The notes beneath the pieces were generated by a model. The model saw only the letters and a program-made list of their open reading frames with translations, searched no databases and was not told where the DNA came from. Positions 4,996-57,150 of a DNA stretch of 64,000 nucleotides are shown here, one piece after another. The DNA is taken from assembly GCA_008632985.1 (NCBI GenBank), contig QPGO01000191.1, forward strand, positions 1-64,000, read 5' to 3'. Both the position numbers and the translations under genes were made by a program. The stretch comes from Psammoneis japonica (lineage: Eukaryota). Numbering within the stretch: the first letter of the stretch is position 1; every line of letters begins with the position of its first letter.

Positions 4996-5199
4996 GTTGA
5001 TTGGTTTGCTGTTGAGGGTATGATGCTGTTGTTGTGTTAGGTTGTGTTAGTTTTAAGGATGAGATAGAAGACAGCATCAAGTAAGACGGCTTCGTTTTGG
5101 GTTTCAATCGTTTTATTGTGCTTGGTGATGTTGATTGATAGGATAGAAGATGCCTTGTACCGTATGGTCTGCTCATCTGTCCACCAAAGCCAAAAATTG

Positions 5200-7241: not shown

Positions 7242-7691
7242 TCACAACCACTCGGCAGAACTTTCCTGCCAATCAACAGCTTGGTTGGCCAGCTTGTCAG
7301 TGTGCGTGTTGCGATCACGGTGAATGTGCTTGAAGTCCACCACAAAGTCAAAGTCACACAGCATCTTTTGACAGTGGTTGTAGAGCGGTCTTAGACGTGG
7401 GGAATGCACTTGGCATTCACCCTTCAACTGATTGATGACCAGCTCCGAATCTCCCTGGACGTGCAGCATGTTGTGAATCTGAGTGCCTTCATTGCGAATG
7501 AACATCAATCAACCCAAAACACCCGTGCACTCCGCAACATTGTTGGTGGCTTCTGCTCCAATGTGGTGTCGACCTTTGGCAACCACCTTGCTGTTCTTTC
7601 CGTCCAGAAGCACCCATCCACTTCCCGAGTCCCTGCTCCCGCCACGACAGGCACCATCAAATCGAAGGATCAAAGTGTGACAGCATCCCAT
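7242..7691 (-). pseudogene. RNase HI pseudogene (copy B), hypermutated
   Basis: Collinear with 3304-3753: MGCCHTLILRFDGACRG...TNNVAEC..., in-frame TGA at 7509-7511, then GDSELVI...HIHRDRN. Confidence 0.9.
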
Positions 7692-24883: not shown

Positions 24884-25129
24884 GACAAGTAAAGACGCTC
24901 CTGTGTAATGAAGGACTATGTACGAGTGATCTTCTGGTTGCTAAGTTTCCGCGGTGTAGCACTTTCAACATCCAACATTACATTGCCATTTCGGTCGTCG
25001 TTCGTCGTCGTTGATGGCTGCGCTGAGCGCTGCGAGGCTGTCGGCTGTCGGCGGCAGTTTTTTCTCGCGCGACTTGAAGTTGTTTCCTCGCGCAAATTGA
25101 AAGTGCTCCGCATCACTACAGTTCACGAC

Positions 25130-26450
25130 TGGTGTGTGGCCTTGTTCTTGCAGCGAGTTTCACCTCGCCCCTGCGGGGCCCACTTGTTGATTTGGGAGCC
25201 ATGCGTGAACAACTCCCCAGGCACCAAGCCCATGTTGTGGTTCTGTGGTTGGGTTGGGTCAAGGAAGAGCACCGGGAGCAGCAACACCTGCTGCCTGTTG
25301 TCCAGATTGTCGTCAGAGAGTGATGAGCTGTTTGATCCGCCCCAGGCAGCAAGCCCAAGCCATCACAATGCTGCAAGCCTTGAAGGGCATTCTCAGGGAC
25401 TGACTGTCTCTGACAGTGTGCTTTCCATGCAAGATGCCAATGCCTTCCTTCACCAGACTCTTTTGGAAATCTTCGATGGCCCCACCCGCCAAGACAGAAT
25501 CATCGATTCCAAGCTCAGTTTTTTGCCCAGCTGGTGCACAGGTGCAAATCCCTGGACTCATCATGGAGCACTGCTCTGGGTTTGGCAGAGGCCATGTCAG
25601 CACTTGGAACAATGAAGAGGGGCCAAAAAGACACAGGATCAACAGGGACATTGTTTGAGTTAGAAGCCAGCTGGAAGTCACACACAAGCATTGCTGCCAG
25701 AAGTCAAAAATGCCGGACTTTGTTGAGGGTGCAGACATCAAATGATGCACTCTGTTGCTTGGCAGCCCAGCAGAGTGTGTTTGTCTTGCTCAAGTTGCCA
25801 TGAGACAGCAAGTGAGCACTGGTGCAGCTCTCCATTTCCGTGGTCAGCAGCTTCCGGGGGGGGGTCATGTCAAGCTTGCTTTTCTCTCTTTACAAATTTG
25901 CAAAACCATGCTCCTGTCAACAAGCACACTTGAGATTGTCAGCAAAAATGACAACCTGGCAGCCATGCATGGCTTTGTGCTTAACTTGTGATGTCTGCCA
26001 AGCAAGCTTGAAGCTGCTGGGGCCCCTTCTTCAGATGTGCTGACCTCTGCACTGCTGGACTGTGTGATGATTCACTCAACACCCCTGCTTTTGAAGCGCC
26101 TTTGTGCTGATTCATCTGGGCCTGTTTGTTTTGCTCAGACATTCTTCTTCAGTTGGCGTGCATGCACCCAGATTGACAATGATCTAGCCCAGCATGGGAT
26201 TCAGCCCTGCTGTGATGATGGCATTCTCAAGACTCTTGCTGGCCAAAGAAATTGGGTCTGTGGTGGCATCTTTCGAGGGTCACCTAAACATTGTTTGTGG
26301 TGGGCCACGGCAAAAACGAGACTAAATCTGGATTTTGCCACCCCGACTTTCCAAGCCTCAGCATGTCGTGATGCCCTCTGCTCACAGGAAGAAAACACAC
26401 TCACCTTGGCTGTTCAGAGAAACACACGCTCATCTCTTGTGCAGAGGTGT
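25130..26450. repeat. Degenerate TpA/CpG-depleted segment (TE remnant or pseudogene)
   Basis: Abrupt loss of TA between ~25130 and ~26450; Tyr-free, Cys/His-rich ORFs. Confidence 0.55.
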
Positions 26451-26957
26451 CTAGTAGAAACATTACAAACGTTGCCCTACCGGCGAAGACTTTATGAAAT
26501 TGCTAAACCACAATTTCAAACTGCGCTTTACGTGCCATGACGGAAATTGTTGACTGAACGAATGTTCCGCGTTGACAGCATCAGCGGGATTGATTCCTCC
26601 TCTTTGCGATGGGCCTTTGAGCCACCGCAGCGTTCATACAACTATACAAGAGAACTGACATTAGCTAAACCCTCCCGCATTGCACAATATCTCAATGGAC
26701 ACTAAACCAGATATTTCAGTAGCATCATTCATTTCTTTATTGAGCAATCAAAACTACCTACTTCTAGAGTACACTACACTCTGTGGAATAAATCTCTAGT
26801 TCTCAGCACTCGCTCAATTCAGTTAGCTAAGGGCGGGATCGTTATACGATTCCAAGTATTGTGCTGTGCATTCCAACTAGCTAAAGCAGTGACGGTCCAT
26901 GATTAATATTGCTATACTTTTCTCTTCGTGACTAACTAGTACTATTCTTCCAAGATG

Positions 26958-37219: not shown

Positions 37220-38090
37220 AGTTTCGTTGTTGCTGCTGTATTTTCTCTACTGCGCTGCTATTTCAGAACGGACCAACCGTCCGCTTGTCAAGTGAAAAAA
37301 AAGAGTCTTGTTTGTGTGATTGAGATGCCCGAGGGCCAAAAGCGTAACAGCAGAAAGCGTTGCTTCGTTCTTCACACCCTCTTGGCGATGTTTTTGGAGA
37401 TGAGGCGGTGATCATTTTTTTTTCGAATGGCTTGCTGCTGCAAGGCTGGTATGTTTCCACGTAGAATCTACGCAATAAGTGTGGGACTGGCCTCATTCCG
37501 TAGAATGCTACGCAGCTTGTACTAAACCTTGATGGGTGGCAAGGGCTTTCAGAGCCACCCGTCTCCAGAAGATGTAGCCACGTCATCAGGGTTCGCTTTT
37601 TCTACAGGAGCTTCAGTACAAACCCAAGTTGAAGTGTGTGAGTGTGTCAACATGACGTGACGTTGGGGTGACATTGCCCCAGTGTCATGGATACAAATTT
37701 ATACAGCATTAATGAAAATGTAATAGATGCACTTCGATTGTGCCTTTCAACCACTGTGACTGGCTGTGCGCCGAAGCTGGAAACGCACTTCTTCTTGCAA
37801 CACAGCAGTGCAAGGGGGAGCAATCAAGGAGGAGTGCCGCAAAATGGAAAGAGCAGATAAGACCAACCAAGAGTGTGTTGCAGATGATGCTTTGCTGCAA
37901 AACATTTCTCCTGGAGAGAAAGAGCCCCTCGCTGCCGCTTCTCCCCCAGCTCTGCAGCAATGCACACACAAGCAGCTGCAGCAGTGCACAGCACATTTTC
38001 ATGAAAGCAAGCAGGGTCATTGAGAAGAGGCAGAGAGAGACAGAGAGAGAGGGGGGGAGAGAGAGAGAGAGGGAGAGAGAGAGAGAGACA

Positions 38091-39870
38091 GCTCACCCAT
38101 CTGGAGTGCGGTCTGGCCTTGTCGTGGGGCTTCAAAATTCTTTGGCTGCTTTCTTTTGTGCAGTGCTGGCTTCTCTGATTTGTTTGTCACATTTGTTGGC
38201 AGTGGTGATTCCAGAGAATGAGAGCTCTGATCCATCTGGAGCACTGTGTCTGGCCTTGTCATGGGGTTGCTTTTCTGCTGCAAACACTTCATTGACGACG
38301 TCTTTGGCACTTGTGCACTGTGCTTGAAGAACGAGTGCAAACAAACAAAGTGCAAATTGTGAGATTAAATTTTGCTCTGTGATTTTTGGTTTCTCCAAAC
38401 AAGCTCTCAATGGCCCAAAGCTTCTGCACTACTTCTGCAAACAAAAGGCCTTTCAGAGAATGCAGTCGTGACAACAGATTGTCCGAATGCGGCCGACTGG
38501 CATTGACACGTGAGATGTCAACATCATCTGTCAATCACATTTGCAATTTTTGACTTCTGATCAACTTTGTGTGATTGTTTTGTCCTTTGTGTGCATCCAC
38601 GGCTGTGGTGCGATTGACACATGTGCAGCGCACAATTGCAATTTTGTGTGTGTGACAGTTGCATGCTGCACTTGGCATGTCCCGACCAACCCTGCCACCA
38701 ATGCTGCAACCTGGGAAGCATTTGCCTCCAAGCTCAATGACTTTAATGTCACCTGGATCACAGGCCCCAGAAGCCACAAGTGAGCTTCATGGACCTCACA
38801 ATCTCACTCCAAGTCTCACACCTTCATGCCACCCACTGTGAAAAAGAAATGAGTTTGTGCATGTCCATCCCACCACACTCAGCTCACCCGCCTGGAGCAC
38901 TCACCGGCCCAATCACAGGCATGCTCTTTTGCTTTGAAAACCTCTGCTCTAACCAAGGAGATGATGCCAAAGCAAAAATGAAACTGCTCTGCCACTGACT
39001 GCAAGCCTGAGGCCACAAGCCCAGCAAACCACTGCCACTCTTCCACAAAGCATGTGCAAACCTCATCTTTGGCAATGCTGCCACAGCTGAAGAGCCCAGT
39101 TGAAGAACCCTGTCTTCTTGCACATCCCATGCCATCCAAATGACCCACCATCAAGCAAACTTTGGAAGCTCTGGAAAGGTGCAATGGCCCACCCTCTCTG
39201 CTCACAACCTCTCTCAAACCTCCGCAACCACGTGCAACAATGCATCAGACTCGATCACACCATTGTTGCTCTGCTCTGCAGTTGCTCACACAACCTTGGA
39301 AATTTGCTCTCATGCTGCAACCTTTGCATCTCACATGGCCCCCAGTTTCATCCTGCTGGATCGCAAACAGAGAGGCTGTTAAGAGAGAGAGAAAGAGAGA
39401 GAGAGATGAAGAGCAACACACGATTCGAACCATTTGAATCAATTGGGTGCCCAGTCTGCCCCTCACCCCCCAGATCTTTTGAGTGCAACAACTTCAACCA
39501 TGCAAACAACAGCAGCCAGCCACTGATGAAGCCACTGCAAAAGTCTCACTTTTCTGACTTTGGTGCCAACATTGTTGTGCCTGCTGTTCGCTGCAACAGC
39601 TGGACAAATGTCTGAACAAGTGGCTCCACCTTGGCCACCTGTGTCTTCTTGTTTGTCACATTTGACAGATTCAAGAGAGAGAGCTCACCCATCTGGAGTG
39701 CTGTCTGGCATTGTCATGGGGTCCCCCCATTTAAAAATCTTTGCTTTCTTCTGTGCCACACTGGCTTCTCTGATTTGTTTGTCACATTTGTTGGCAGTGG
39801 TTGCTCCAGAGAGAGAGCTCTCATCCATCTGGAGCAATGTCTGGCCTTGTCACGGGGTTGCTTTTCCACT
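38091..39870 (+). repeat. ~190-bp direct repeats (38091-38280 and 39683-39870) flanking the Penelope-like fragment; (GA)n microsatellites nearby
   Basis: Both copies share gctcacccatctggagtgc..ctggcttctctgatttgtttgtcacatttgttggcagtgg..catctggagca. Confidence 0.75.
38700..39340 (+). mobile_element. Penelope-like retroelement RT/thumb fragment, degenerate
   Basis: FMDLTISL..HATHCEKEMSLCMSIPPHSAHPPG, matching consensus LYEK.MNLY.YIPP.S.HPPG with Y->H/C; also FLHIPCHP.DP and HNLGNLLS. Confidence 0.7.
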
Positions 39871-40121
39871 TCAAAAATCTCTGCTCCAACCCAAAGATGG
39901 TGCAAAAGCAAAAATGCAAGCTTGCAAGCTGCTGCAAGCCTGACAAGCTGCTGCAGCTCTTCAAGCCATGGGCCTGCACTCTTCACTTGCAGCTCCCCCC
40001 CCCTCTGATGCTCACAACCACACTTGGCATTGAACTGGACTCACCTGCATGATTGTGCACAGCAGCCAAACCCACAATCTTGGCACAACATCCACTCATG
40101 CTGTGACCTTCCCATCCCCCC

Positions 40122-40133
40122 NNNNNNNNNNNN
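40122..40133. other. Assembly gap (N run)
   Basis: 12 N characters. Confidence 1.
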
Positions 40134-40537
40134 CCCCCTCTCCATGCACTGACAGTGGCCAAGAGAGAGAGAGAGAGAGCAGTGCATCTGCTTGGGTCAT
40201 GCCATTTGTTTGCTGAGAGCATGTGCAAGTGAGAGGAAGAGAGAGCTGGACTGCACGAGAAACTGCATTGAAAAAACAATCAAACAAATCCACTGACCTG
40301 TCTTCTGCTGGTCAGATTTTTTAAACACAATGACAGCAGCCAGCCACTGACAAAGCCACCACAAAAGTCTTGCTCCTTGCTTTGGCCCAACATTGTTGTG
40401 CCTGTCATTTGCTGAACAGTTGGACAAATGTCCAAACTGGCAGCTCCCACCTTGGCTGGTTTCACTCTTGTTTGTCACATGTTGCAGAGAATTGGCTGTG
40501 CTGATTCTGTTCATTTGTTTGAGTGAGAGAGAGAGAG

Positions 40538-40572
<35 letters not shown>

Positions 40573-41999
40573 CAGAGACAGAGAGAGAGACAGAGCAGTG
40601 CATCTGCCTGGGTCATCATGTCATTTGTTTGCTCAGAGTCTGTGCAACCTTCTGCAGCACCAGATCTTTCCCAACACAACAGCTTCAAGAACCATGTTGA
40701 CAACAGCAGCCAGCTCATCTGCAAAACATTTTCTCCACATTCAATGAAAGAGCAATTGACCAACACTTTGGCATGATGACAGAACATTGACACATTTTTC
40801 TCTGCCTCATTTTTACAATTCATTTTTACAATGCAAGGTGTGTGATGCTTCTTTGTCATTCAGCAAACAACAATTGTCTGAAATGTTCAGCTTGTTTGAA
40901 TGTGCAAAACAAAAGTGTGAAATGACAAGTTGCAAAGAACTGCAAAAAATCTTGTGATAAAAAATGCACAACTTGTTCTTCATCTGTTTTGATTTTGGGT
41001 TGTGTTTGCTGAGTTGTTGTTTGCTTTGTTCACAATTGTCTGGCATGCTCATGTGTGTGTGTCCTTGCTGTTGTTTGCACCAGAAACAAAGAGCCAACAC
41101 CGCACCTGTGCACAATTGTTTGCTGCTCATTTGCAGTTTGTCTGTTGACCAATGCATTGCAGTTTGCATTCTGTGCAGCTCACATTGCACTGACCAATTG
41201 TGACATTTGGTTTTTGCTGCCAGCCCTTGTTTGCGATCTGCCTCTTTCACCAAAATTGCTTCCTGCCTTCCAACCTTGACAACTGGAGACACTCATAATT
41301 TCTTGCATCTTGCCAGCTTCTTGCCCACCATCCCTTGATTTGCTGTCCCTTGACGTGTCATCTCCCTGCAGCTCAGCATTTGACAGAACATTGTGCTGTT
41401 GCACAACATTTGTGAAGACTTCATTGATCATTTCTGTGCCTCAGCTTTCTCACCTTTTTGTTGTTTTTTGCACAAAACAACCATCTGGCCAAGAATTTCT
41501 GCTGGCACTTTGTGTGCTCTTCTTTTGTTGATGACAACAAATGCAGCAAAGCCAATTGTGAGCATTGTGCTTCTCTTTTGAACATGTTTGACAAAACCTG
41601 TTTTGTTTCTTGTGCCCTCACCTTGTTGACATCATCCATTGTTCTTTCATCTTTTTTCAGACAACCAGTGTGCTTGCTTCACTTTGTCCCCATGTTCCTT
41701 TGTTGCGTTGGTGCATGGTGGCATTGCAAGTGTGCTGTGTCTTTTCAAATCATCAACTCATGTCAGCACCCACGGCCCCCTTTTTTGTGTTGCACCTGTC
41801 TGCGTGGGCTGCAAAGAATGAGTTTTCACTCACATGTTTTTTCCCTGCTTTTTTGCTTCAGTGTGGTTTTGAATTTTTTTTTGTTTTTTGGCAAAGGTGT
41901 TTCTGTTTGTGCACGCCATTCTTTGTTCTCACCTCTCAATGACATTGCTGTTGTGTCTGCATGTGTCACAATTCATTTTGAGTCTTGTTTGGCACTTTC

Positions 42000-44900
42000 C
42001 ATTCTTGCATGGAACACTCCATCTTGCTCACAATTTTCTGTTCAAAGATTCATTGACTTGCTTGCAACATCACCCTGTCTGAGATGCAGGAACACAGAGC
42101 TTTCATCTTGCACTCCTTCACTCCCCACAGCAACAGCACAACAGGTTTGCCACCAGGCTTTGTTTGTTTGCCATGGTGCCAAGAAGAAAACGAGCAAAGA
42201 CTCTGGCCAGGTCGATGAAGGTTGTGGTTTGCACCCCAGCAAACTTGTTGAGTTTGACACCATCCCCAGCTCATCTCATGATCTTGCCTGTGAATCAATG
42301 GAAAGTTTGTCAACCCTTCCCAACACCAGTCCACATTGAGGCTCCTCACTGGTGGGGTTCACACTTGGCCAGCTTTCTGCATCACGTTGGTTTCTCAGCA
42401 TCAGAAAAATTGTTGGACAAGCCAACAAAACTAAAAAAAAGAGCCTCAAATCCAACAAAATGAAGAGGCAACTCTGAACAAGGCCAAAATGATCTCTGAT
42501 CTCAAGGAAAAAGCAAAAATTTTGAGTTGCTGTCATGATGCAGATGAAGACATGGGCTTTTGGATGGTGATGCAGAGACCAAGAAATCCCTTGGTGAGCA
42601 GAAATTGTGAAACTCAAAAAGGACAGAATGGCATTGCATGGAAAAGTGAAACATCTGAAAGACTGCACCTCCAGTTTGAAACACAAGAAGAAGTCTGGCA
42701 GCAAAAAACAGCTGCAAAAATTGGAGGAGTTTCTTCAGTTTGTGTGCACCACTGCCTTTGGGAACCATCTGTCAATTTTCCAATTGCTCTTTGGACTTGG
42801 CTTTTCATCCAAGTTGGTGAGTGTTGCTTGGATCAATGCATCTGTCTCCATTGTTGCATTGTCTTTCTTTCCATTTCCCAACTCCCTCCTTTCTTCAGGT
42901 CATTGTCAACAAACAGAGTGTGGACAACACTATGGCATCTGCCACTTCATTTGACTTGACTTTTTGCAGTGCCTGCCATGTGTGACCTTGTTGTCAAACA
43001 TGCCACTGGTCAGCATCTCTGAAAAACAGGCAAGCACACATTTGACAGCCCTGCTTGTCATGCCTGTTTCTGGAACAAGAGGATGTTTCAGCCCAAGCTC
43101 TTCATGCTTTCAACCAAGAGTGCAGCTGTTTCAACCAGCTGCCAAAGAAGATCATCACTCCCTTTCTTCCAGTGGAGCACAGCACTTTGGAGCCAATGAG
43201 AAAACCCCACCAACATTTTGGACAAGTTGGAAAAAATTCATCATCTGAGTCTGAAACATTGTCAGAGCTGCCTGTTCCCTCAGAGGGCATTTGGCACCTT
43301 CTTCCAATGCCGCCATGAGAGAAGTGCCCCTCCCTTGCTGACTTTGGCAACACATGACAGTTGAGCAGGGCCTCAAGCAAGTGCTTCATGGTTGTCAAAA
43401 GATGAAACAAATGATGCACTTTCCTGGGCAGATGTCCATTGATGCCATTGACGCTGCCCCCAACATTTGGAATGTCCCAGAGTGCAGCTTCAACAAGGAG
43501 CTGAAAAACTCTCCTGAGCTGATGCTCTGGCAGAAGTCACTTTTTGCCATGTTCTCTTGACTCCACAACCTTGAATGAATCTTCAACCATCTTGGAAATC
43601 TGAGATTGACAAACAAACTCATGAACAAAGGCAGGGTCATCCTGAGCTTTTGGGGGGTGCCACAATCAGGGGCCATTCCAGAGAAGTTGGAGGAGTGAGA
43701 GCTGCAATGGCAAAACACATGTCATCACCCATGTGGCCTTTTGTGATGCCTGTTGTCATGCACAAGCAGAGGTGCAAATGATGAATGCCAAGTTTGTCAC
43801 CATGGTCAATCCGTGTTCCTTGCTTCACAGATGCAAGGGCTTTGGTTTCAGCAAAAACAAAACAAAGAGCATCATGGCAAAACTTGATGCAGCTCTCTTG
43901 CCAGTCCACTGTGTTCTGTCCTCAGTCCTTTCATCACAGGACTTGGGACACATTGGGGTCATGCCCAGAACAAACCAGCTCTTTGCTGGGTGGCAGAAAC
44001 AATTGTCAATGTCTCCAATCATGGTGCAAAGAACTGGCTGGGTGACCAGCCTCCCTGTTTGGTCGCAGAAGGTTGAGTTGTCAAAAGCAGGCAATGGTGG
44101 GGTGACAGTGAAGTGAGGGCGGGTCTGGTGGGCAGTCATCATCAAGTGTTTTCCAGGTCCTGTCACAGCTCTTAACAAGCTTCTTTCCACCAACCACTGC
44201 TGTTCAGAGGCCTGCAAACACAGTTGCTGGGATCTTTGGCACTGTGCTGGTGCTCTTCACAGAGTCACATGGCATCTTTGTGAAACTGCAGATCTTGGAA
44301 AAGACAGCAGGCATTGTAGAACAAAGAAGATTGGCGCACATGCATGGGAGGGAATTCAGGACCAGCATGCCTTGGCAAGGAGGTGGGCTGGCACAAGGAA
44401 GACACTTCTTCTTCATTCGGCTCATGGTTGTTGTGCACAGGACAGAATCTTGCTAAACTTGCCATTGCTCTGGGGTGCACAGTGGCAGAAGGGAAGAATG
44501 TCTTGGCACAAGTGAGCCAGAAGGTGGTTGTTTCTCATCATGACAACAAGGTCCTCTTCCACAGGATGAAGCTTCTTTGTCAAAGAACTCCTCATTTTCA
44601 GAGCATGGCTGTCTTGAAGAAGAGATGCAATGGAGCCAAGGTCCTCAATGTTGATGGGATCTGCAAACTCAAAGGAACCATCTGAGGTCAAACCACACAC
44701 ATCTTCATTGTGCAAAGGCTGAAACAAAGATTCAAAGTTGTCTTGAAAATGCCTGACCCCATCATTGCTGTGAACTGTGGGTGCATCAGAGTCATCACCT
44801 GATGATCACCTGTGTCATCAACAGAAGAGTTGCTGCAAGAAAAAACACTGGGAGATTCCTTTGGGCATCCACCAGGGAGGAAAGCACAATGGTGGGGTCA

Positions 44901-45000
44901 AAATGATGCATCCATGAGACAAACACTCAAAGCAATGTTGCTGAGGAGTGTGGATTGGAGGCTGTTGCCAGCTGAGGTGCTGAGGCTGCTCTCCATCACA
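42000..45000 (-). mobile_element. Degenerate DNA transposase remnant, Plavaka/CACTA-like
   Basis: Fragments QPVLCTMIGDID..KSWFVLGM, FCHDALCFVF..HLHLCLCM..G.DDM.CHCSSH..DC and HHLFHL resemble Plavaka-type transposases after reverting C/H to Y/R. Confidence 0.45.
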
Positions 45001-46309
45001 GTTGCATCTTCCTGATGAGGTGATGGAGTTTGCTCCACAAGCTGCAGAGAAGATGCCTTCCTTGAAAAGAAAGGAACATCATTGAGATCATCAGCAACAT
45101 GACAAGAGGGGCTCATTGCAAAATGTCAGTTGAGAGAGCTCTTGGAGGCAAAGGTTGCAAACAAACATTTGGAGTTGGGATGCTGGTGCTCAGCCGTTGT
45201 CAATGAAAAGGAGCGCAAAATGGAGAACAGTGAGTTTCTTGTCAGAGGGAGCACAACTCAAGCAAAACAAAAGAGAGTGGGGCTTGGGTTGCAAACTGCC
45301 AAAGCACAACATTGGAGCATTCCTAAAAACACAAAAACACAAATTTGTGACAAAGTTGAGGACAGAAATTCTGGCGCAAAAAAGCACCAATTTGCACACA
45401 AATGCACAAATTTGTTTTTGACAAGTTGGCCTCATCGCACAAATTTTTGATGACACACAAATCATGGCACACAACCCAATCAACTCACACAGTTGCTTGC
45501 AAGAAATGAATGATGTGCCACTCTCTCCACCATGCATCCATGACATGGGGCTGCCATCATCATTTGTTGCTTTCATGGAATGGCCCAAGTGCACATGATG
45601 TTTGATGGAATGGGGTGGGACTGCTGTGTTTCTGAGCATCAGTTGCTGCCCTCTCAAGAAAGGTGGGCACACAGGATTGTGTGCATGTGTTGGCAGTTGG
45701 CAGTTGGCATCAACTGCATTGGCAATCATGGGACTGCAGTTTGTTGCTGCATTTGCAATGGACAGAGTGCACTTGTTGTCCAACTGAGTGGTTTGCAGCA
45801 TGTGCAAAGACAGTGACAAAACATTGGTTTCTCATGGGATTGACCACTGCCACCATGCTCCTCTCCAACAGCCATGCAAGTGTTGCTCACAATTTGTTTC
45901 TCTCTCTCACACACTTTGCACTCATGCCATGTCATCCAACACTGTGCCCAGCTGCGACAGTGACAACGACTGCAGTCCAGGCCTGAGTGGCAATCACCAT
46001 GCTGCAGCAGGCAACTGCACACCTCCTCATCTCTTCATGCTGGCAGTGTGTGTCTGGAAGCAGTGACAGTGTCTCCTCATGTCATCACACCAGTGCAGTG
46101 GATCCGGTGGCAGTGATGGAAATGAAAAAGCATGAAAGTCAAGCAAGCCAAAGGGTTTGATGAACATCCCAAAGAAGAAAAAAAAGACAAAGGTCACCAC
46201 TCTAAAGCATGGTGGCAAAAGCAGAGGTGAGAACAAGTGGATCTTCCATTGTGCACTTTTTGCTCAACTTTGCACTTCTGATGCAATGCCACTGTCTGTT
46301 TCCTTTTCC

Positions 46310-49300
46310 ACACAGGAAATGGTTTCACTCAGAAGGAGACTGATGTTCTTCCAGACATCCCAGAAAACAATCTGCCTCTTTGTCATGAGGAATGGAAGTG
46401 TGTTGCCGCTGATCACATGGCATGTTTTCCTGACAACAGCCATGCCACAGATTCATTGAAGCACAAGCTTTGGCCTCTGTGCTGGCACAAGGCCCTGACT
46501 GGTGACCCAATTTGCCTTCCCAAAGAAGTGCTTTTCTACGTGGCTTCACATTGATGGTTTCTACGTGGAATTCTACGTGCGTTTTGTGCTGCGTTTTCGT
46601 CACCATGGTGACCTCTCCTCTGCTGCAGGCTGAGCCTCCCGGCAACTCTCCTCCTGATCCTCCCCATGAAAATGGCGAGTCTCCTCCAACCCCTCCCCAT
46701 GCTGGAAACGGCAAATCCAAACATGACAATGCCAATGAGATTGCCCTCAGGTTTGAGTTTACCTCCGATGACCCCAATGCTTCCATGGCATCAGCTGTGG
46801 GACACACGATGGTGTCCCAAACCCTGCAACAAAAGGCCACTCAAGATCCTCTTACAAACAAAATTTCAACATTCTCCAACAGTGGCAAGACCATTCCCAA
46901 AATCAACATGGTTGATTGGATGACTGGACTTGCTCATTCTCAACACTTCACAATTCATCGCATCGGCGGATCTTGTTGGTGCAAGCCAACGCATGTAATT
47001 GCCCACCGAATCAGGACTGCTCTCACCCTCTCTGACATTCAAGACATTCCATTTGTCACCAAAACTCTCAAGGATAACTCCATTTTTATGTGCCGACATG
47101 AGTGGGATGAAACTGTTGCCGATCTTGTCCACATCGTGCAAATCTCTGAACATCTTCCCCGCCACTGCTCTGCGGATGTTGTGATTAAACGTCTTCAGGC
47201 AGTTGTTCCGAACAGTTGTCGTGCCAAGCTCCCGATCCATCTGATCCCTCAGAAAATCACTTCACCAACGGACAAGTCCATCCGTGCAGATTTTCACTCC
47301 ATTGAAACCCCATGAGACAAAGCAAGGGAAGTTGTCAAAGTCTTGTTGGAAATTCTGAAGGAGCACCCCCGATTCTCAATTCTTTCCCGCTGGAGATTCT
47401 CTGCAATGGAAGCAGAAGCCTGTGAGAAAGAGGTCGAACACCAACACAAACTTGCTTCCATGACATGCGCAACTCCCCTGCTGCACCACACCGCAGACAT
47501 GAATTTTTGCCTTCGCCCTCAGCTCATCCTCTTGGAAGGTGTCCATGACATCATTCCATCCAAACGTCAGTCCATGATTTCATGCTACAACGTGTCAGTG
47601 TCCAAGATGTTTCACAAGAAAGTCCAAGAACTTCTTCCTCCAACTCTTCAGAGCATGGCAAATGACTTGCCAGAAGATGCCTCGCCAATGTCAGGTTCTC
47701 CACAGCCAATGACACAGGGCCTCTCCGATGATGTGTCTGATGCGGCAAACTTTGTCACTTCTGCAAGTGTCCGCAGCTGGACTTCTTTGGACATTTCAGA
47801 AATTTCTCAAAACAGCATTCCTCCTCCACCTCCAGCCCCCTCAGATGCACCTGCCCCACCGGTCCCCAACAATGCAGGTGTTCACCCGTTCAAGACATTT
47901 GCTCAAGCACTAAATTCAGCACCGACCAATCAGCCTGTCACACCTGCAACCTCCGACATTGCTGATCATGCTTCGGACCTTGAAGATTTGCATCAGGAAA
48001 TTGCACGGATGCAAAAGGAAAATGAGATTCGGCTTGCCAGAATTGAAGAACAACATCAACAGTCCATGGCTGCTCTCCAGGAAACATTGGAACAACAGCA
48101 TCAGACACAAATCACAAGCCTGGTCCAGCAACTGCAGACAGTCATTCAAGAGTGTCTTCCTCTGCCAGATTCCCTGTCTGACTCATGCTTGTCCCCAGCT
48201 GGCAAGAAACCTGCAGCATCTGCTCCTGCCAGCTCTTCCTCGGAGGAACCTCCTGATCTGTCCCTGATGGATGCCACTCAAGACGATGCAAATTTTTAAC
48301 AGGGCGAACCAAGTCGTCATTTTCGCCCAACAACACCAACGCAGATTTACAATCTCTCTCTCAGCCTCCCTTCGAGAGAGCAAAGCCTTGCCATGAGGGG
48401 TGATCCCCTTTTGCTCACTGATTTTCCCTCTGCTGAGCAGGGGACTCCACCTGATGAGATGCCACTCCCCAGTTCTAACCCTGAAGACACATTGCCTCTG
48501 GCAGCCGATCCTGCCGGTTCACCTGCTCCCCCATCTCTGCAACATGTGGCCCAACAATGGAACAACCTTCTTGATGGCCGATGTTGTGACCTTCCTTCCC
48601 AGACCATTGATTGTTCTAACTTGCGTGCAAATGACCCCATTGGCGATCATCTGGGCCCCAAAGAACCTGACACGACCCGACTGTGTGCTTTCAATGCAAA
48701 CGGATGTTCCTGCAACTCTCTCGGTGGCAATTTCAATTCCCATTGTCAAGCAATCAATGAACTGCAGGCAGACATCATTGGCATCTCTGAGACATGCTTG
48801 GATGCCACTCAACCGCAAATTTCACAGACCTGCAGACAGGTGGTGCATTCCTCCCTCCATCATGGTCGGCTGACTTTGTCAGCATCTTCCATCCCCTTCA
48901 CTGCCCCTTGTGAGCCAGGTGGAACTGCCACAATCTCCTGCAATTCCTTGGCGTCTTGCTGCCGAACACAGAAGATGGATCCCCTGGGCAGATGGTCAAT
49001 CCAGATTTTTGATGGGAAGCAAGGCAAACAAATCATGTTTGTTTCATGTTGCAGAGTGTGTGCCAACAGAACATCCGCTGCAGGCAAGACTGCTGCATGT
49101 GCTCAACAAGTTAACTTGCTCCGCGCAGAGGGTCGCGCTCACCCTGAACCCCATTGAGCCTTTTGTGAGGACCTCTCACAACTTTTGGAAGCATTTTTGT
49201 ATGAACCCAACAGAGAGGTGGTCCCATTTGGTGACTTTAGTGCGGACTTCCGACATGATGCGGACCTCTTGGCTCGCATGGCGATTCGCTTTCGACTCTC

Positions 49301-52300
49301 TGATGTCATGCACAGTTGCACGCAAGACATGGACTTCGCCACCTGCCTTTGTGGCTCCAGAAGGCTGGGTTGTGTGCTGGCCACCCCTGGCACCCTTCAT
49401 GCAGTCACACATTGCGGCTGTGAACCTTTTGGATGCTGTGCGTCTCGTCAGATCATCGTGCTTGCTTTGTCGATTTCGATGCGATGCAGCTCTTTGGCAA
49501 CACCTCGGTGGACGTCCCGAAGCCTGCTCACTGCACACTTCAAACCAAATTGCCCAAACAGGCGACCGCTTGCCTGGAAGCAATCGGCCCCATGCTGCTG
49601 AGCTGCGACGTTTTGCAGCACAGTGAAGATCTTCTCGCCTCCGAGACTCCTGACCCCCTGCTTGCGGAACGTCCAGACCGTGACATGACTCAGTTTTGCA
49701 TTGCAGCCGCCAAGCATTGTTGCCAATTTCATGAACCCGAGTGGTCTCTGAAATTAGCAGATCTCTGGCGAAAAGTTTTTGTTCTCTCTCGACTGCTCTC
49801 CATGTTCAAAAACAGGGTCAATTTTGTCCCAGCGATCATTGGAGAACGGTCTCAACTCAAGTCTACCTTTTTGATCCCAACAACAATGGCAGAATGCCAA
49901 ACCGCTTTACGACAGGCACAAAAAGAATGCAAGAAAATCGCCAAAGACAGTCCACATCACAGAGAACGTGAGCGGGATTCTCGCATGGCGGAACTCGACT
50001 TAGAGGGTGCCACGGCCTCCAAGATGCAGGCCCGGATTCTCCGAAATGTGCATTGTGCAGAAGAAACTGACCAAGCATTCCGCAAAGTTGACGCATTTAA
50101 GGACAAAGACAGTTCAAGTGTCACTGACATCCAGGTCCCCAAAGATCCTGCTGCTGATCCTAAAACTTGCGAACATTGGATTGCCATTGATGCCCCAAAA
50201 GATGTCGAGGCTGCTCTTGCTTCCCAGAATCAGAAGCACTTTGGTCAGGCTCATGGCACTAGACCCACTGTTCTGCCATTGTCCGTAGACCTTGGTTGTG
50301 AAGGCAACACTGTTGTGGCAGAATTGATGCTCGACGGAGACTGCGATGCCTTTAACATGACCGAAGCTGCTGCCTTGCTCGCACAGCATCTCCGTCTCCG
50401 GCAGCTGTCTCCAACTTCCTCACGGAGTCCGCCCTTGGGAAAAAATTTAAAACTTGGTCAGAACCCACCTCCACATCCCTGAAATCTGGGTTGCACCTTG
50501 GCCACTGGAAGGCAACGTGTGCGAAGCACGTTCACTCGTCCACTGCGGATGAACTTGGTGACCCCACCGACAAACGTCTCGAACTGGACAATGTGCAAGA
50601 AACACCACAGGCCATTCGTCTGAACCTCCTAAATTGTGTGCTCAAATGGGGTTGCTCATGCAATTGATGGAGAGACATTGTGAATGTTGTGATTTTCAAA
50701 GAGCCCAGGAACAATGAAGTCTGCCGGCTGCGAGTCATCCACATCTGTGAAGCAGACTTCCAATTGATCACAAGTGTTAAATGGCGTGCTCTTGCACAGC
50801 ACATGGAACATCAGCGCCTCTACAATCCAGGGATGTGTGGCACCAGAGCCTTCCTTTGTGCCCAGACACCTGTCTTTTTGGAAGCGCCAATGCCAGAAAT
50901 TTCCAGAGCATCCAGAAAAACCCTCATTGCCAGCGACGACGACTGCACCTCATGCTGCAACCGCAACATCCCGGCTTTGATGGCAGCAATGTCAATGAGC
51001 CTTGGAATGGACCCAATGGCAGAGGCAGTTGCAATTCACACTGTTCACTTGGCATGGCACTGGTTGCTCACCCTTCTGGGAACAGCGGAAGATTCTTGCT
51101 TGCATTCATCCAAGCACCCCATTTGTGGAACTGGTCAAGGCAGTGGAAACTCCCCCTTTCACTGGAACAATCTTTGCAGCTTGCTCTTTGACATCTTTGA
51201 TGCCAAAGCTCATGGTGCCTTTCTTTGAATCCCCAGACAGATCACATCAGCTGCGCATTTTTGCAAGAGGGTGTGTTGACGACACTTCAAAACAAGTGAA
51301 TGATTTCTGTGTCTCGCCTCAACCTTCAGCAGACAAACTGGCATTGCATCTTCAACATGACAACCAATTATGGTGTGATCTGCTGCACACTGGTGGCCAT
51401 GAATTAGAGCCACCAAAATGCTCCTTCCACGTTGTTGAATGGGAGTTCTCCGAACATGGTGAACCAAATCTAAGACCGCACAACCATGACCTGGATGTTG
51501 AAATCTTTTCAGCAGATCAGACCTCCTCATGATGCAGCACTCAACCATCCCCGTTTGCTCCCCACAAGACGCTGGGTCACTGTCCTTCTCCATCAGGAAA
51601 GCCAAAGAAACAGCTTCAAGTCCTTAAAGACAAAAGTGGCGGGAAGGCCCTTTTTGTCCAATCTGTTCCTCTGGATCGCGTCAAATCATGGCGGCATCGC
51701 CATGCGTGTCACTTGCCCTCAGCAGCATTTGTTCTTGCCAACTCTCACTTTGCCATGAAAGAACTCTTGAAAATTCAACAACAAGCTGTGAGAGTTACAT
51801 TTGCCAAGTGTGGATGTGACAGGAACACAAAATGTGCCATTCTGTTTGGCCCTCAATCGCTGGGTGGCAGAGGTTTCCGGTCTCTGGACGTGGAGCAAGG
51901 TGTCGCACAGATGCAGCAACTCTTGCATCACACCCATGGAGCGCAGTCACTCCTGCAAGACGATCAGCCATGCAAAGCTGTGCATGTTGCCATCTCATGG
52001 ATCCAGTTGCAAGTTGGCACTGGGGTGAGTTTTTTGAAGGACGTCAGTGCTCCTCACCCACACTGTGAATCTCTGTGGTTTGTGTCCGCAAGGTCCTTTT
52101 TGCTTCAAGTGAATGGCTCCATTTGCTTGTCCGACGACGGTGCACTGCCTCTTCAGCACAACAATGACCAACACTTGATGGATGATGCTCTCGACATGCC
52201 CCAATTCTCAGCTCAAGACATCCGCTGGATAAATTGTTGCAGGATGCACCTCAAGGTTCTCACGGCTTCAGACATCACCCTTGCTTGTGGTTTGCTGCTC

Positions 52301-55150
52301 AACAAATCAAAAATGCATGGAGATCCCACCTTTCTCAGTGGCATCAGCACGCTCAATGACATCAAACAAGAAAAACCTTGCCACAGAGCATGGCGCCCTT
52401 GGATTGAAGTTTGTGAGTCATTGTGCCACCCGAATTCAACGAGACTGAAAGATCCTTTGGGCGATTGGCTTCTGCCCCCTTCCAAGATGAGGATGAGTGC
52501 GAGTGCATGCTGCTCTCCAGCAGAATCTTGCCTGCATGTCAGATCTCCAACAGGACACGACATTTTCTCTGTCGTCATGCACACAGCTGAGGATTTGTTT
52601 CCCTCAGAGACTGTCCCTTGTCCTTCCAACGAATCCTTCCCGGTCGAAATCAGTGCGTCCCATCACGGTCATTGGCAATTTTCCCAGCATCGTGTGGTTC
52701 TGGTGCTAGAAACACCCCCCCCCCCCCCTCTTCCAGATTGTTTCCATGATCGTCTTCAGGCGTTGCCTTGATGGGAAGCAGCTCTCTTCAGAGACATGAC
52801 TTTCCATGTGCCCCTGAACTCTCTGATCGATTTGTTGCTGACAGATCATCTCACTGCAGGAAGTGATGGCTCCATCCCACACCAGCAGGCCACTTTCGGA
52901 TGGACTGTTACGATCCAGGGCACTCCGCTGGTGGACTGTGCTGGCCCTGTGTTTGGCAGGTTGCCTTCATTGTGCCGGTCGGAGGCATGTGGAGTTCCAT
53001 CGATTTCAAGGTTTCTGTTTCGAGTCCTCAAGTGTGGCAAAGTTTCCCATTGCTTTGGAATGGACAACTGGTGTGACAACAAAGCCTTGGTTAAAGTGCT
53101 GCAAAGACCGCATTCTTCCCACCCGTCTGTCGATCCGATCACCCAAGACAATCAAGACAAAGATTACAATCTGCGCCATCATGACGCCAATGTGCTGTCA
53201 TCGGATTGGGATTTTGCAAACGAGACACTGCAGACTGCTGCGAACATTGCAGATCAGTTGGATCCCTCCTCTGCTGGTCAAGTGCCTCTAGTCAAATGGG
53301 TTGAAGGTCACCAAGATCGTCATGCACCAGTCGAAACACTGCCTTTAAACGCAAAAGTAAACATCCGTGCAGACAAGTTGGCTGGACAGCATCAACGTCA
53401 AATCTCAGAGGACACGACAGAGGTCATTCCACTCCCGCACTGCCAAGCTTGTCTTTCTCTTTCCAATGGTGCTGTTGCAGCGGGCCTCAAAGCCTTGGTC
53501 TGGTGCACAGCAACAGCCCCTGCTCTCATGCTCTACACACAAGAGAGAAACCAATGGGACGACACTGTCACGTCATTGATTGATTGGAACGCACATGCGA
53601 CTTTGGCAAAACGGTTTTCTAAACAACATGTCTCCACGGTCAAACTGATTCACAAGCTGTCACCTGCCAACAAGATCACCCACAGGCACAACCCAGTCCG
53701 CCCTCACCATTGTTTGTCTTGCAAGAGCCCCATGGAAGACAGAGACCACATCCTACGATGTCCTGCCAATGAAGACTGGAGACGCACATTTCTTCAGGGT
53801 TTGAAGAAGTGCTGCGACAAGATTGACACCATGCCTCCCCTTCGAGACTTCCTGTTGTCGTCCTTGGAACAATGGTTCCACAACAAAATGATGCACGCGA
53901 CAGATGCCCCCCCACTTCTCAGGTCATTGTGGCAAGCTCAGACTGGCATTGGATTTCGTCAGATTTTTAATGGCCGTTTCTCCTCCCTGTGGAACACATT
54001 TCAAGAGATCCACCTTAGAGAGTCGGGTTCACTTGAGCAATGTCGTAAAGAGAATCGTCCTCCCCCAGTGTGGGCAGTTCAAATTGGAACACACATGTGG
54101 CGGTCTTGGTGGGAGCTGTGGGAAAGACACAACAAACAGGTTCACGGACACGATCTAGATGCACGCAAATCCTCACAACGACGCATCGCAGAAGCAGAAC
54201 TCACCGCTGTTTGTGACAAATGGCAAGAATGTCTTGCAAAGGACAGAGCAGATCTCATGGATGCTTTGGAGGATCACTTGGCACACGGCACATCGCAGAT
54301 TGTGAATTGGGTGTCAATGATCAAACCCCGCCTTAAAGCCAGCATCAAAGAAGCAAAGAGTCTCATGCTCCGAGGCACACATTCCATTGCCAGTTGTTTC
54401 GGGAGGGCATCACCTTCTGGTGACGCCTCTGTTGGCTAGCCCCTGTTTCCCTTCTGCCGCACTAGCTCAGTTCACTGGAAGTGTGGGTTAGCCGGCGTCG
54501 GCATGGCTGACAAAGGAGTGGTGGCACTTGCAAAAATAGATCTGGTTTTTTTGCCTTCCCAAAGAAGTGAGCCATGCCAAGAAAATCCAACATGACATGC
54601 AGAAAAAGGCAGACATGTCAGAGGCAGAGGATGATGGAGGTGCTTTTTGGTGCTCAGGAGATGAAGGTGACAAAAACAATGACAAAGTGCAGCATTGTGA
54701 GCTCAACCTGGCTGCCACCCATGGTGTTGCTGGCACCCCTGTTGCTGCCAACACAAGTGACTCTGATGATGAGGAAGAGGAAGCAGTGCACCCAACTCCA
54801 ACAAAAGAGTGCACACAGGAAGCTCTGGGGACAGCGGCCATCAATCAGAGGAAGTCTGCCACCATGAAGACTTCCAACAAGGATGGAGGGAAAACAGCCA
54901 ATCAAAAGGAGCCTGGCACCTGCCAGATTGTCAAGAAGCACAGGAAGAAGGGAGGTCCAAGTGCCAAAAGGAAAAAGCACAGCTGCAGCGCTGATCCTGA
55001 AGAAAGTGTCAGCAAAGATGATGTCACAAAGTTCCTCCAGATGAGCATGTTGTGGAGGATGCAAGGCCAGAGAGAACATGAGGAGGAGCCTGGCGGCAAT
55101 GCTGGCAATGCCCCATCCAATGGTGCCAGATTGACATCATCAGCTTGGCA
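46310..55150 (+). pseudogene. Myb-like/DUF6818-type ORF (often TE-associated), split by the LINE: 46310-46530 + 54570-55150
   Basis: GNGFTQKETDVL..NNLPLCHEEW..DSLKHKLW..TGDPICLPKEV continues in register after the LINE as SHAKKIQHDMQKKAD. Confidence 0.6.
46531..54549 (+). mobile_element. Full-length ~8.0-kb non-LTR retrotransposon (Ambal-like: ORF1; ORF2 APE-RT-RNase H), degenerate, with a 20-bp TSD
   Basis: TSD TTTGCCTTCCCAAAGAAGTG at 46511-46530 and 54550-54569. ORF1 ~46604-48299. APE motifs FNANG, IGISET, DPLGRWS, FGDF, SDHR. RT motifs KEPRN..RLRVIH, DDDCTSCCNR, GTGQGSGNSP, GCVDD. RNase H motifs GSDGS, RSEACG, WCDNKAL, WVEGHQD, NIRADKLA. Confidence 0.92.
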
Positions 55151-56444
55151 GGTGCCATGGGCTCAGAGATCACGCATGACCCAGCATCAGTGAATTGTTC
55201 CTTTGTGAGCTTGCTTGGAGCTGCTGCCAACACCAACAGCCACCAGTGCATGCCATGCAGGAGGAGATGGTGCTGTGTCATCAGCTTGCAACTCCCCAGC
55301 TGCCGCCACCAAACCATCAATGAATCAACTGGCTGGCTCAAGCTCACTCAGATCCACACAAAATGACATGGAGGGTGCCATGGATGAGAACAAAACAGCG
55401 GGTGTCCAGCGTCAGCGTAACAGCTTTTGTGACCACAATGAATCAACCGGCCAATGCAAGGTTGCTTGGAGCCATGCAAAACAAAACACAGAGGGTGCCG
55501 TTGACAAGAAAAAACAACAGGCATCTGGCGTCAGTGCAGCAGCATCTCACAACTGTTGTCAGAAGTGTGGTTTGCAATCAAACTCAAAAGCAAGTGTGGT
55601 TTGATGAAATTGTTTGCATTGACACATCACTTTGTTTCTCTCAAAAGTGCATTGATGGATGTGATCTTGGAGGAACAATCACAAAGCATCCGCGCAATGA
55701 CGCAGAGGGTGCCACAGATGAGAGCAATGCAGCAAGCATCTGGTGTCAGCATGACTGCATTTTGTGACTGCTGTTGCAAGTGTGCTTCACAATTGAACTC
55801 AAAAGCATGGTTTGATGAACTCATTTGCCTTGATGTGGAGCTGGGAAATGTGCGCACTCTGAATCTGGTCAAGACTGACACATCCACCCCAAACACTGCA
55901 GAGAAGAAGCACGATCATGATCTTCAAAACAATCTTCCTTTCTGCACTGCCCTCTCTGTTGTGCCAAAGTGCAACAAGAAGCCAGTGAAAACCAAAACAG
56001 GAAAACCAGGTCAGAAAGAGGGCCATGAAAACAAGTGAGAAAAACTTGTGTTTGTGAGTGAAGTGACACACCAGAAATTCACACTGGCTGTGCCATCTTC
56101 AATTCATCAATGGAGCACATTTTTTGCATTGCAGATGTGTTTGCAGACAGACATTGATGATTGTTGTGTGTTTTGTCATTTCAGAACACCAAAAACAACA
56201 CAATGTTTCCAACATGCAACACAAGAAAACACTGGAAATGACACATTGTTGTGATGCACTTGCGCTGCAGAGAAAGGGTTGTGCTGCAAACCAAAAGTTG
56301 TGTTGTTGTGCCTGCTGTCAATCTGCAGCACTTGGATGAACATCAAACAAGTGACTTCTGCCTTGGCTGGTTTCTGTTCTTTGTCAGTCACATTTGATGG
56401 GTGGTTGGCCATGCCTGCCAACTCATCATTTCATTTAAGAGAGA

Positions 56445-56487
<43 letters not shown>

Positions 56488-57150
56488 CTGGCAAAGATCA
56501 GCAAAGAAAACAGAGTCAAAACTCTCAATCCATTGTTGTGGCTTGCAGCCACAGCCAACAATGCCAGAGCTGCCCCATGGACAAAGATGGCAAGAGAAGA
56601 GAGAAATTTCTTTGAGAGAGACAGCCAGCTGCACTTCTAGAAAGCCCTCCCGCCAGCATGCAGTGTGCCTCTGCACTTGCCTGAAGTCATTGCCAGCTTC
56701 AAAGAGTGGTGTGGTTTGTGAGAGACAACCCAGGTGTGCCAACAGCAGCACAACCACCCAACAACCACCCCCTCATCCTTGCCAAGCAGCACCACCCAAC
56801 CCGCCCACCCCCTTGAAAGAAAAGCAAGCACGGGGAAGCTGCAGCCAGGTGGCAAGTGTGTCCTGCCTGTGGCACACTTGCTCAGGGCACATTGATGAAT
56901 TGTGCACACTCACACTGGAATCTGGAGAGAGTTGCTGCTGCAGTCTTGGCTTTGCTGGCAAGCAATCACCAGTCCTCCAAGAACAAAGAGTTTGCAACCA
57001 GGAGGAACAGCCCATTTGTGTGGCACAGAATGAGTCATGTTCTGTCAAGCAACAAGACAGTTTTGTCACCCTTGTTTGCTTTGAGACAGAAGTGCCTGGT
57101 GACAAAGCAGTGATACAGAGATGGGCATCCTCAACAGCAAGTGTGATTCA
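55150..57150. repeat. Degenerate TpA/CpG-depleted repeat sequence with internal ~120-bp repeats and a (GA)n tract at ~56438-56487
   Basis: Recurring gagggtgcc..gagaa/gagc..gcatctgg.gtcag units between ~55370 and 55800; essentially no TA. Confidence 0.55.

Follow-up and report, generated by a model that had tools for sequence, protein, structure and literature searches.

TA dinucleotides in inserted transposon DNA of the diatom Psammoneis japonica survive or disappear according to the bases on either side of them. The DNA analyzed is a single stretch of 64 kb (contig QPGO01000191.1, positions 1 to 64,000, hereafter the window), and the principal carrier of the pattern is a degenerate retrotransposon without long terminal repeats (non-LTR) at 46531-54549, for which we confirm flank-dependent TA survival, four normalizations being in agreement. 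The loss is specific to TpA, depends on two flanks that act independently of each other, is symmetrical between the strands and took place in situ. An original prediction made from the letters alone had claimed that the residual TAs of this element are biased in context, with TTA/TAA and CTA/TAG spared and purine-TA-pyrimidine (RTAY, where R is a purine and Y a pyrimidine) almost absent, and both parts of that claim hold. Among the 56 TAs that remain in 8,019 nt, 31 are YTAR, 17 YTAY, 7 RTAR and 1 RTAY. The commonest tetramers are TTAA (12), CTAC (8), TTAC and CTAA (7 each) and TTAG and CTAG (6 each), followed by GTAA (3), ATAA and TTAT (2 each) and GTAT, GTAG and ATAG (1 each), with none of ATAT, ATAC, GTAC or CTAT; each of the hexamer forms that had been named for residual TAs is found among these survivors.

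The element is one of five TA-poor blocks with sharp edges that emerge when the observed/expected (O/E) ratio of TA is scanned in steps of 500 nt, on which scale it scores 0.03-0.24 and the unmutated parts of the window mostly 0.25-0.9. The blocks lie at 1-2000, about 5164-8594, about 24980-26451 and about 37725-57113, the last being split into an old repeat and the element nested within it:

1..2000, + strand, copia-type reverse transcriptase fragment (RVT_2); TA O/E 0.08-0.29, CG O/E 0.80-0.98 and thus undepleted
5164..8594, no strand assigned, second hypermutated block, delimited by the TA O/E scan, which holds RNase H copy B
24980..26451, no strand assigned, small hypermutated block adjoining the ELP1 gene, with no recognizable domain
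37725..57113, no strand assigned, whole hypermutated block of older repeat DNA plus the inserted 8-kb element, its edges sharp among TA positions
46531..54549, + strand, degenerate non-LTR retrotransposon resembling a long interspersed nuclear element (LINE), 8,019 nt, a single long frame with stops and frameshifts

In 2-kb bins the TA ratio is 0.42-0.65 in host DNA, 0.01-0.12 at 38-56 kb and 0.09 at 6-8 kb, and TG and CA stand at 1.4-2.0 in the two depleted regions. Across the blocks, which comprise the LINE, the copia reverse transcriptase, an RNase H element and unannotated repeats, TA ranges from 0 to 0.25 and TG/CA from 1.4 to 2.5, and the host genes between them are of normal composition. 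The older repeat DNA of 37725-57113 (TA O/E 0-0.10, CG O/E 0-0.3) is more depleted than the element inserted into it.

Normalization strengthens the bias, because the spared contexts are those that were rarest before mutation. Unmutated DNA of the window (37.5 kb, 1,340 TA) contains 217 YTAR, 317 YTAY, 353 RTAR and 453 RTAY, and against this background the NTAN tabulation, normalized for ancestral frequency as the prediction had proposed, rejects uniform conversion in the element with a deviance of 77.3 on 9 degrees of freedom (p=5.5e-13). Pooling the five blocks (25.5 kb, 118 survivors) raises the deviance to 130.6 on 9 degrees of freedom, the survivors being 61 YTAR, 52 half-sites (YTAY or RTAR) and 5 RTAY where the background has 217, 670 and 453 (chi-square p=5e-23). 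Host open reading frames (ORFs) read in sense (514 TA) carry 179 RTAY, 179 YTAY, 78 RTAR and 78 YTAR. A metagenome scan yielded two distant, unmutated relatives of the element, L001 and L002, which serve only as a proxy for composition (TA O/E 0.61-0.65); their 184 TAs divide into 71 RTAY, 61 YTAY, 36 YTAR and 16 RTAR, a distribution that differs from that of the element with p=1.2e-8 over all classes (chi-square) and, for RTAY alone (1/56 against 71/184), with p=3.4e-9 (Fisher).

The order YTAR, then half-sites, then RTAY is found in five of five blocks and is steeper where depletion is stronger. Survival in these three classes is 0.61, 0.20 and 0.17 in the copia block, 0.67, 0.17 and 0.01 in the element, and 0.20, 0.045 and 0 in the old repeat, where not one RTAY stands against about 135 expected. 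The copia block, with 18 TAs left of which 4 are RTAY, represents TpA loss at an early stage.

The prediction had put the preference at 4-6 nt and roughly purine-TA-pyrimidine, which the tetramer densities and a separate effect of the second base after TA bear out. Relative to background, the pooled blocks retain TTAA at 0.66, CTAA/TTAG at 0.40, CTAG at 0.26, GTAA/TTAC at 0.16 and CTAC/GTAG at 0.15, and at the low end ATAA/TTAT at 0.09, GTAC at 0.037, ATAG/CTAT at 0.032, ATAC/GTAT at 0.014 and ATAT at 0. An additive model in which the two flanks contribute independently fits these values (deviance 4.54, 6 degrees of freedom, p=0.60), so that the tetramer is unnecessary as a unit. The loss exponents for the base that follows TA on either strand are 2.51 for T, 1.50 for C, 0.64 for G and 0.23 for A. 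The +2 base also matters: survival is best at TAAA (0.40), TAGA (0.38) and TAAC (0.37) and poorest at TAAT (0.11), TACT (0.04), TACC (0.03), TATT (0.02) and TATA (0), and after TAC it reaches 0.13 with G and 0.12 with A, so that the footprint extends over about 6 bases. The stability of the duplex was considered as the source of the flank rule and rejected by reasoning from nearest-neighbor energies, as the order does not match (5' G and 5' A are both fast).

A direct view of what TAs become is provided by a pair of paralogues, one of which lies in the second block:

2692..4065, - strand, copy A, the unmutated paralogue with 62 TA, a stand-in for the ancestral state of copy B
3304-3789, - strand, intact RNase H-like ORF of 161 amino acids within copy A (RVT_3, E=2.8e-24)
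6613..8021, - strand, copy B, the mutated paralogue, with 12 TA against 62 in copy A

Comparison of the window with itself, both plain and after collapse to purines and pyrimidines, returned this as the only usable mutated/unmutated pair, along with some short repeats within the old block. Copy A has normal TA and CG, and copy B, 78% identical to it, is hypermutated. At the 54 TAs of copy A with ungapped neighbors, copy B has TA at 7, CA at 19, TG at 15 and other dinucleotides at 13. Counted per strand, A-to-G change affects 39/112 adenines after T (0.35), 22/200 after A, 16/181 after C and 17/186 after G; the rate is thus raised only after T, which identifies the process as TpA-specific. Retention follows the flank order (RTAY 0/15, YTAY 1/11, RTAR 3/18, YTAR 3/10), although RTAY against YTAR in this pair alone is borderline (p=0.052). 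Copy A also has TA at 7 of the 12 TA positions of copy B, most of which are therefore true survivors; 4 of the 12 are not TA in copy A. The single tyrosine of copy B was said to lie in ctCTAc, and this is correct, the GTAG at 7381 on the + strand being CTAC in sense (RPLYNH). Two of the TAs in copy B, at 6626 (TTAG) and 7091 (CTAG), stand opposite CG in copy A (TTCG and CGAG); either these are CpGs altered on both sides or an ancestral TA was lost in copy A, and both are YTAR.

CpG dinucleotides, which are depleted in four of the five blocks (1-2000 being the exception), serve as an internal control. The share ratios of surviving CG vary only from 0.73 to 1.47 across contexts, whereas those of surviving TA run from 0 to 5.07. 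CpG decay is therefore nearly blind to its flanks, and the TA bias is not a general property of transposon composition; the two kinds of decay that share these blocks are separate processes, that of CpG being insensitive to flanks. The copia block is TA-poor yet retains its CpG, so TpA loss can precede CpG decay or proceed without it. In the old repeat (37801-46530 and 54550-57000) CpG survivors are fewest at YCGR (10 against 570 in the background) and most numerous at RCGY (22 against 513), a weak flank effect that is opposite in sense to that on TA.

We regard a TpA-specific, flank-dependent A:T-to-G:C process, acting on inserted transposon DNA with TAY as its target on each strand, as the probable source of this pattern, and hold to it with some reserve. 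After insertion, transposon DNA would meet a TpA-specific transition process in which a hit on the A of the + strand turns TA into TG and a hit on the A of the - strand turns it into CA, the two strands being struck independently and at about equal frequency. On each strand the rate would depend on the bases that follow the target A, in the order T > C > G > A at +1 (about 11 : 6.5 : 2.8 : 1), with pyrimidines at +2 raising it and A protecting. The target would then be 5'-TAY-3', converted to TGY, or 5'-RTA-3' to RCA as seen from the other strand. RTAY, with a good target on either strand, would be lost first, and YTAR, with none, would persist, which would account for the surviving TTAA, CTAA/TTAG and CTAG. 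As to chemistry, we infer as the simplest reading that a nucleic-acid deaminase with a requirement for T at -1 turns adenine into hypoxanthine, a requirement that would parallel the U33 before A34 of enzymes of the TadA/ADAT fold.

Since TA is self-complementary, the data cannot distinguish a lesion on adenine from one on thymine, and the counts are fitted equally well by a T that follows a purine. A modified T within 5'-RTA-3', made for example by a dioxygenase of the TET/JBP type that yields 5-hydroxymethyl- or 5-formyl-uracil, would pair with G and give T-to-C change. Modified thymines at TpA exist in nature as the base J of kinetoplastids and the 5-hydroxymethyluracil of dinoflagellates, and the CpG depletion of the blocks indicates that base-modifying machinery acts there. 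Telomeric base J, however, occupies TTAG/CTAA, which is among the contexts spared in this DNA. Nothing else speaks directly against a thymine lesion, which we nevertheless think unlikely.

The strand on which a conversion occurred separates the TAY target from an enzyme that reads the duplex as a whole. If the A of each strand is attacked separately according to its own neighbors, independent flanks are expected, as observed. In YTAY, moreover, the A is followed by a pyrimidine on the + strand only and TG is the predicted product, while RTAY should give both products. Tyrosine codons allow this to be read in the LINE. The whole element was aligned by tblastn to three homologues, and 38 codons were informative, being tyrosine in a relative and now encoding a residue absent from all relatives; after a pyrimidine 18 have become TGY and 4 CAY, after a purine 7 and 9 (Fisher p=0.02). 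In the copia fragment, where the test is free of confounding CpG decay, 10 of 12 conserved tyrosine positions are informative, with TGY/CAY counts of 2/1 after a pyrimidine and 2/5 after a purine, and the one tyrosine retained is TTAC. The two elements together give 20 TGY and 5 CAY after a pyrimidine and 9 and 14 after a purine (Fisher p=0.007). When the A/B half-sites are included, 31 of 43 conversions fall on the strand whose A precedes Y, which differs from 0.5 (p=0.005) and is compatible with the 0.82 expected from the flank exponents (p=0.11). Tetranucleotide excess over background also hints at YTGY and RCAR as products, presuming that the background is a fair ancestor.

The alternative is that a dimeric, methyltransferase-like protein or some other enzyme of double-stranded DNA takes the quasi-palindrome RTAY whole and alters a strand at random. 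Such a reader would explain why loss is quickest at RTAY and slowest at YTAR, and it would be at ease with the weaker of the direction results, namely the A/B half-sites and the first tyrosine test considered below. The additive fit of the flanks, the pooled direction of 31/43 and the dependence of the Cys/His outcome on the preceding base (p=0.007) all run contrary to it, and we judge it improbable. The per-strand target 5'-TAY-3' to TGY is supported but not settled.

Several observations weigh against the TAY process as formulated. All the data come from one window, and outside the 1.4-kb paralogue pair the ancestral TA frequencies are proxies. Taken alone, the half-sites of that pair are weak evidence of direction, with 11 conversions agreeing with TAY and 7 opposed. 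A first test, on 13 informative tyrosine columns of a MAFFT alignment of the C-terminal 1,146 residues, showed the opposite trend (His 4 after Y and 2 after R; Cys 5 after R and 2 after Y); it has been superseded by the whole-element tblastn test and the copia test. Totals of in-frame Cys and His codons carry no direction signal, although they are confounded by the change of arginine CGY to TGY or CAY. TACG survives better (0.13) than TACC (0.03) or TACT (0.04), so that the full UACG motif of TadA does not seem to be reproduced, and 3 of the 16 TACG half-sites belong to a triple motif at the 5' end of the element. Finally, T before C at +1 is unlike the known context of eukaryotic ADAT2/3 editing, in which, as far as the published accounts available to us go, G or A occupies that position.

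A-to-G change after T recalls polymerase eta, for which TA is a classic hotspot of such errors, and error-prone repair synthesis by a polymerase of this kind in silenced chromatin, with A-to-G errors at WA (W being A or T), would agree with the dinucleotide affected. At AA, however, the change is not raised (0.11 after A and 0.09 after C or G, compared with 0.35 after T), and conversion as complete as that of RTAY in the old block is hard to achieve through occasional patches of repair. We consider this account very improbable.

The transposons concerned are retrotransposons, and editing of the ADAT type favors U at -1 (PMC9600606, in the parts consulted), so that ADAR- or ADAT-like editing of their transcripts, fixed by reverse transcription, has to be weighed as well. 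Editing of sense RNA would yield TG only, whereas the two products on the sense strand occur in comparable numbers, both in the paralogue pair (CA 19, TG 15) and at the tyrosine positions of the element (Cys 25, His 15), and no sense/antisense asymmetry is seen beyond that of coding composition. That CTAC outnumbers GTAG reflects such coding composition and does not mean that the mutator favors one strand, YTAY:RTAR being 179:78 in sense-strand coding DNA and 27:11 among survivors (Fisher p=1.0). Hypermutation also extends over non-coding flanks and nested elements up to the sharp block edges. Copies differ from one another by independent conversions: 221 contigs of the only DNA sequencing run listed as containing the stretch, for which no RNA run is listed, align to the element at at least 80% identity, their differences are mostly transitions, which run either way (A>G 93, G>A 93, C>T 125, T>C 109), and the 40 of 590 difference rows listed include adjacent T>C and G>A double differences, with TG in one copy and CA in another. 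The presence of both products, the lack of asymmetry and the involvement of nested and non-coding DNA place the process at the level of DNA, in place and after insertion, and fit poorly with editing of a sense transcript. Since the +1 preference is in addition opposite to that reported for ADAR and, in the fungal studies as we have them, for ADAT editing, we give the RNA route almost no credence.

That no context-dependent mutator exists, and that composition, selection, newly formed TAs or assembly error at modified bases produced the pattern, is scarcely tenable: the ancestral frequencies are indeed proxies and some of the 4 copy-B TAs absent from copy A are perhaps new, but four normalizations are concordant, uniform conversion is rejected with p<1e-12, survival of CG varies little with context, RTGY and RCAY, the products, are in excess and not avoided, TAs newly formed from TG or CA would be spread at about 24/28/25/23% and cannot explain 55/30/12.5/2% without context-dependent reconversion, and contigs of the sequencing run, which is possibly the source of the assembly itself, match 46501-52037 with 0 differences.

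The identification of the carrier as a degenerate non-LTR retrotransposon follows from its 20-nt duplications together with collinear endonuclease and reverse transcriptase homology:

46511..46530, no strand assigned, target-site duplication, left copy of 20 nt (TTTGCCTTCCCAAAGAAGTG), from a repeat search, the pair being 100% identical
54550..54569, no strand assigned, target-site duplication, right copy of 20 nt, from the same repeat search, 100% identical to the left copy
48933..49430, + strand, APE-like endonuclease part, tblastn alignment to residues 2-165 of the homologue P0003
50419..54400, + strand, reverse transcriptase core and C-terminal region, aligned to P0002, P0003 and P0124
46535..46579, + strand, three copies of TCTACGTG (at 46535, 46560 and 46572) at the 5' end of the element, TA and CG being retained in each

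Endonuclease and reverse transcriptase thus lie in one sense ORF between target-site duplications, with no LTRs, and the order of endonuclease part, reverse transcriptase and C terminus is that of the relatives. A read-through of 50999-54439 has the full-length relatives P0002 and P0003 at 30% identity over 92% of residues; these two themselves give weak RVT_1, Exo_endo_phos and zf-RVT matches below the curated Pfam cut-offs, the Exo_endo_phos match of P0003 being at residues 70-154. Searched against Pfam, the element gave no meaningful domain, either as nine ORF pieces or as its read-through protein, just a coiled-coil match at chance level, and a search of shorter proteins for further copies of the element returned one distant match only. 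The reverse transcriptase motif is CVDD (TGT at 51272-51274) where two homologues have FVDD. The element has 2 tyrosines in 1,146 residues, compared with 60 in 1,265 and 72 in 1,830 in homologues, and its 86 codons that align to a tyrosine of at least one homologue now encode Cys 25 times, His 15 times and Tyr never. The three CTAC sites in the copies of TCTACGTG have all survived, which has a probability of about 0.009 given a CTAC/GTAG survival of 0.21 in the element; the ACGT core of this motif may be a promoter element whose bound protein shielded the DNA, or it may be under selection. At 52717-52727, where the reading frame is otherwise continuous, the element has a run of 11 C.

Within the old repeat, short repeats at 38081-40596 and 55318-56516 are seen, or are lengthened, only after purine/pyrimidine collapse, with 85-95% two-letter identity (40390-40596 with 56300-56516 is an example). 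As matching repeats flank the 8-kb insertion, both sides belong to one repeat family. The old repeat also contains a 12-N assembly gap at 40122-40133. The window as a whole is gene-dense with few introns and includes genes for ELP1, acetolactate synthase, SNF2 and P5CS; the nearest named relatives of its acetolactate synthase are from pennate diatoms (60-68% identity). Unmutated host DNA contains a 96-nt direct repeat (9919-10014 and 15953-16048, 88.5% identity).

A comparable process has been described very recently in Bigelowiella natans, in a preprint of which we draw on the parts available to us (Mettrop et al., bioRxiv 10.64898/2026.01.13.699255). It reports that TpA is hypermutated to TpG or CpA in viral and transposon-like DNA that has become integrated: of 231 mutations found in two viral insertions of mutation-accumulation lines, 230 were A-to-G or T-to-C at TpA, arising de novo and very rapidly in living lines, and low-TpA coding sequences were enriched in reverse transcriptase and DDE domains (10.64898/2026.01.13.699255). 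The diatom blocks agree with that account in the near-exclusive A-to-G and T-to-C change at TpA on both strands (34 of the 54 TAs of the paralogue pair have become CA or TG), in the restriction to foreign DNA and in blocks poor in TpA and rich in CpA and TpG. They differ in host, B. natans being a chlorarachniophyte (Rhizaria), and in the CpG decay that accompanies most blocks. The preprint proposes an ADAT2 homologue, and its main text, as seen, gives no analysis of the bases around TpA (10.64898/2026.01.13.699255); the +1 preference found here does not match known ADAT2/3 editing and so already argues against the context proposed for the sole published case. Our search of the literature on diatoms and other algae found the same process in the B. 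natans preprint only and did not find the flank rule in print. We conclude that the diatom case is a further instance of the newly described TpA hypermutation, to which the flank rule adds a new detail.

Should the rule hold genome-wide, the signature would become a testable specification of an enzyme (T at -1, T > C > G > A at +1), and TpA hypermutation would extend from one chlorarachniophyte to diatoms, which are major phytoplankton, suggesting a wider eukaryotic defense against transposons and viruses. It is possible, although doubtful at present, that diatoms and chlorarachniophytes share a dedicated defense DNA adenine deaminase, a "reverse RIP" (after repeat-induced point mutation) that acts on 5'-TAY-3' of each strand in silenced foreign DNA. 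Such a deaminase would strip transposons and integrated viruses of tyrosine codons, of TATA-like sequences and of signals rich in TA; among natural A-to-G editors of DNA it would be the first whose trinucleotide target is defined, and it may be ancient in the lineages of stramenopiles, alveolates and Rhizaria. Current adenine base editors are laboratory-evolved forms of TadA, and we know of no natural enzyme for A-to-G editing of DNA in routine use, which gives the enzyme behind the TpA pattern a direct interest. For annotation the consequence is practical, as hypermutated transposons lose all Pfam signal and will be missed by repeat annotation of such genomes, while collapse to purines and pyrimidines recovers them.

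Among longer-known systems, RIP of ascomycete fungi changes C to T mainly at CpA, thereby creating TpA, and has flank preferences. It resembles the present process in wrecking repeated or foreign DNA in place through dinucleotide-targeted, flank-dependent transitions on both strands, but the direction is exactly reversed, TpA falling here as CpA and TpG rise, which makes the diatom process a mirror image of RIP and not a member of it. Nor is dependence on duplication supported, since copy A was spared despite being 78% identical to copy B and duplication alone is therefore not the trigger; copy A may be domesticated, expressed or recent. Deamination of 5-methylcytosine at CpG shares the products TG and CA and co-occurs in four of five blocks; it differs in its starting dinucleotide, is nearly independent of flanks and is absent from the TA-depleted block 1-2000. 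ADARs are, to our knowledge, confined to animals. Their hyper-editing likewise produces clusters of A-to-G change in repeat-derived sequence and disfavors G at -1, but it acts on RNA, is not inherited and, in the report as seen, prefers G or A at +1 (PMC5625713), in contrast to a change fixed in DNA on both strands with the order T > C > G > A. The proposed comparison with TadA and ADAT2-ADAT3 stands in one respect, the T or U common to all before the target A, and fails in another, the order at +1. Those enzymes act on RNA hairpin loops. Fungal Tad2/Tad3 editing of mRNA depends most, in the portions of these studies available to us, on U at -1 (PMC9600606; PMC11156358), and at +1 prefers G or A with C depleted (PMC9600606), whereas here TAA and TAG are spared and TAT and TAC converted. 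Bacterial TadA, on a similarly partial view of its source, edits UACG (PMC13170351); C at +1 is favored here, though below T, and G at +2 is not favored. The bias can thus serve as the enzyme fingerprint that the original prediction had suggested, its order at +1 already separating the process from both ADAR and fungal Tad2/Tad3.

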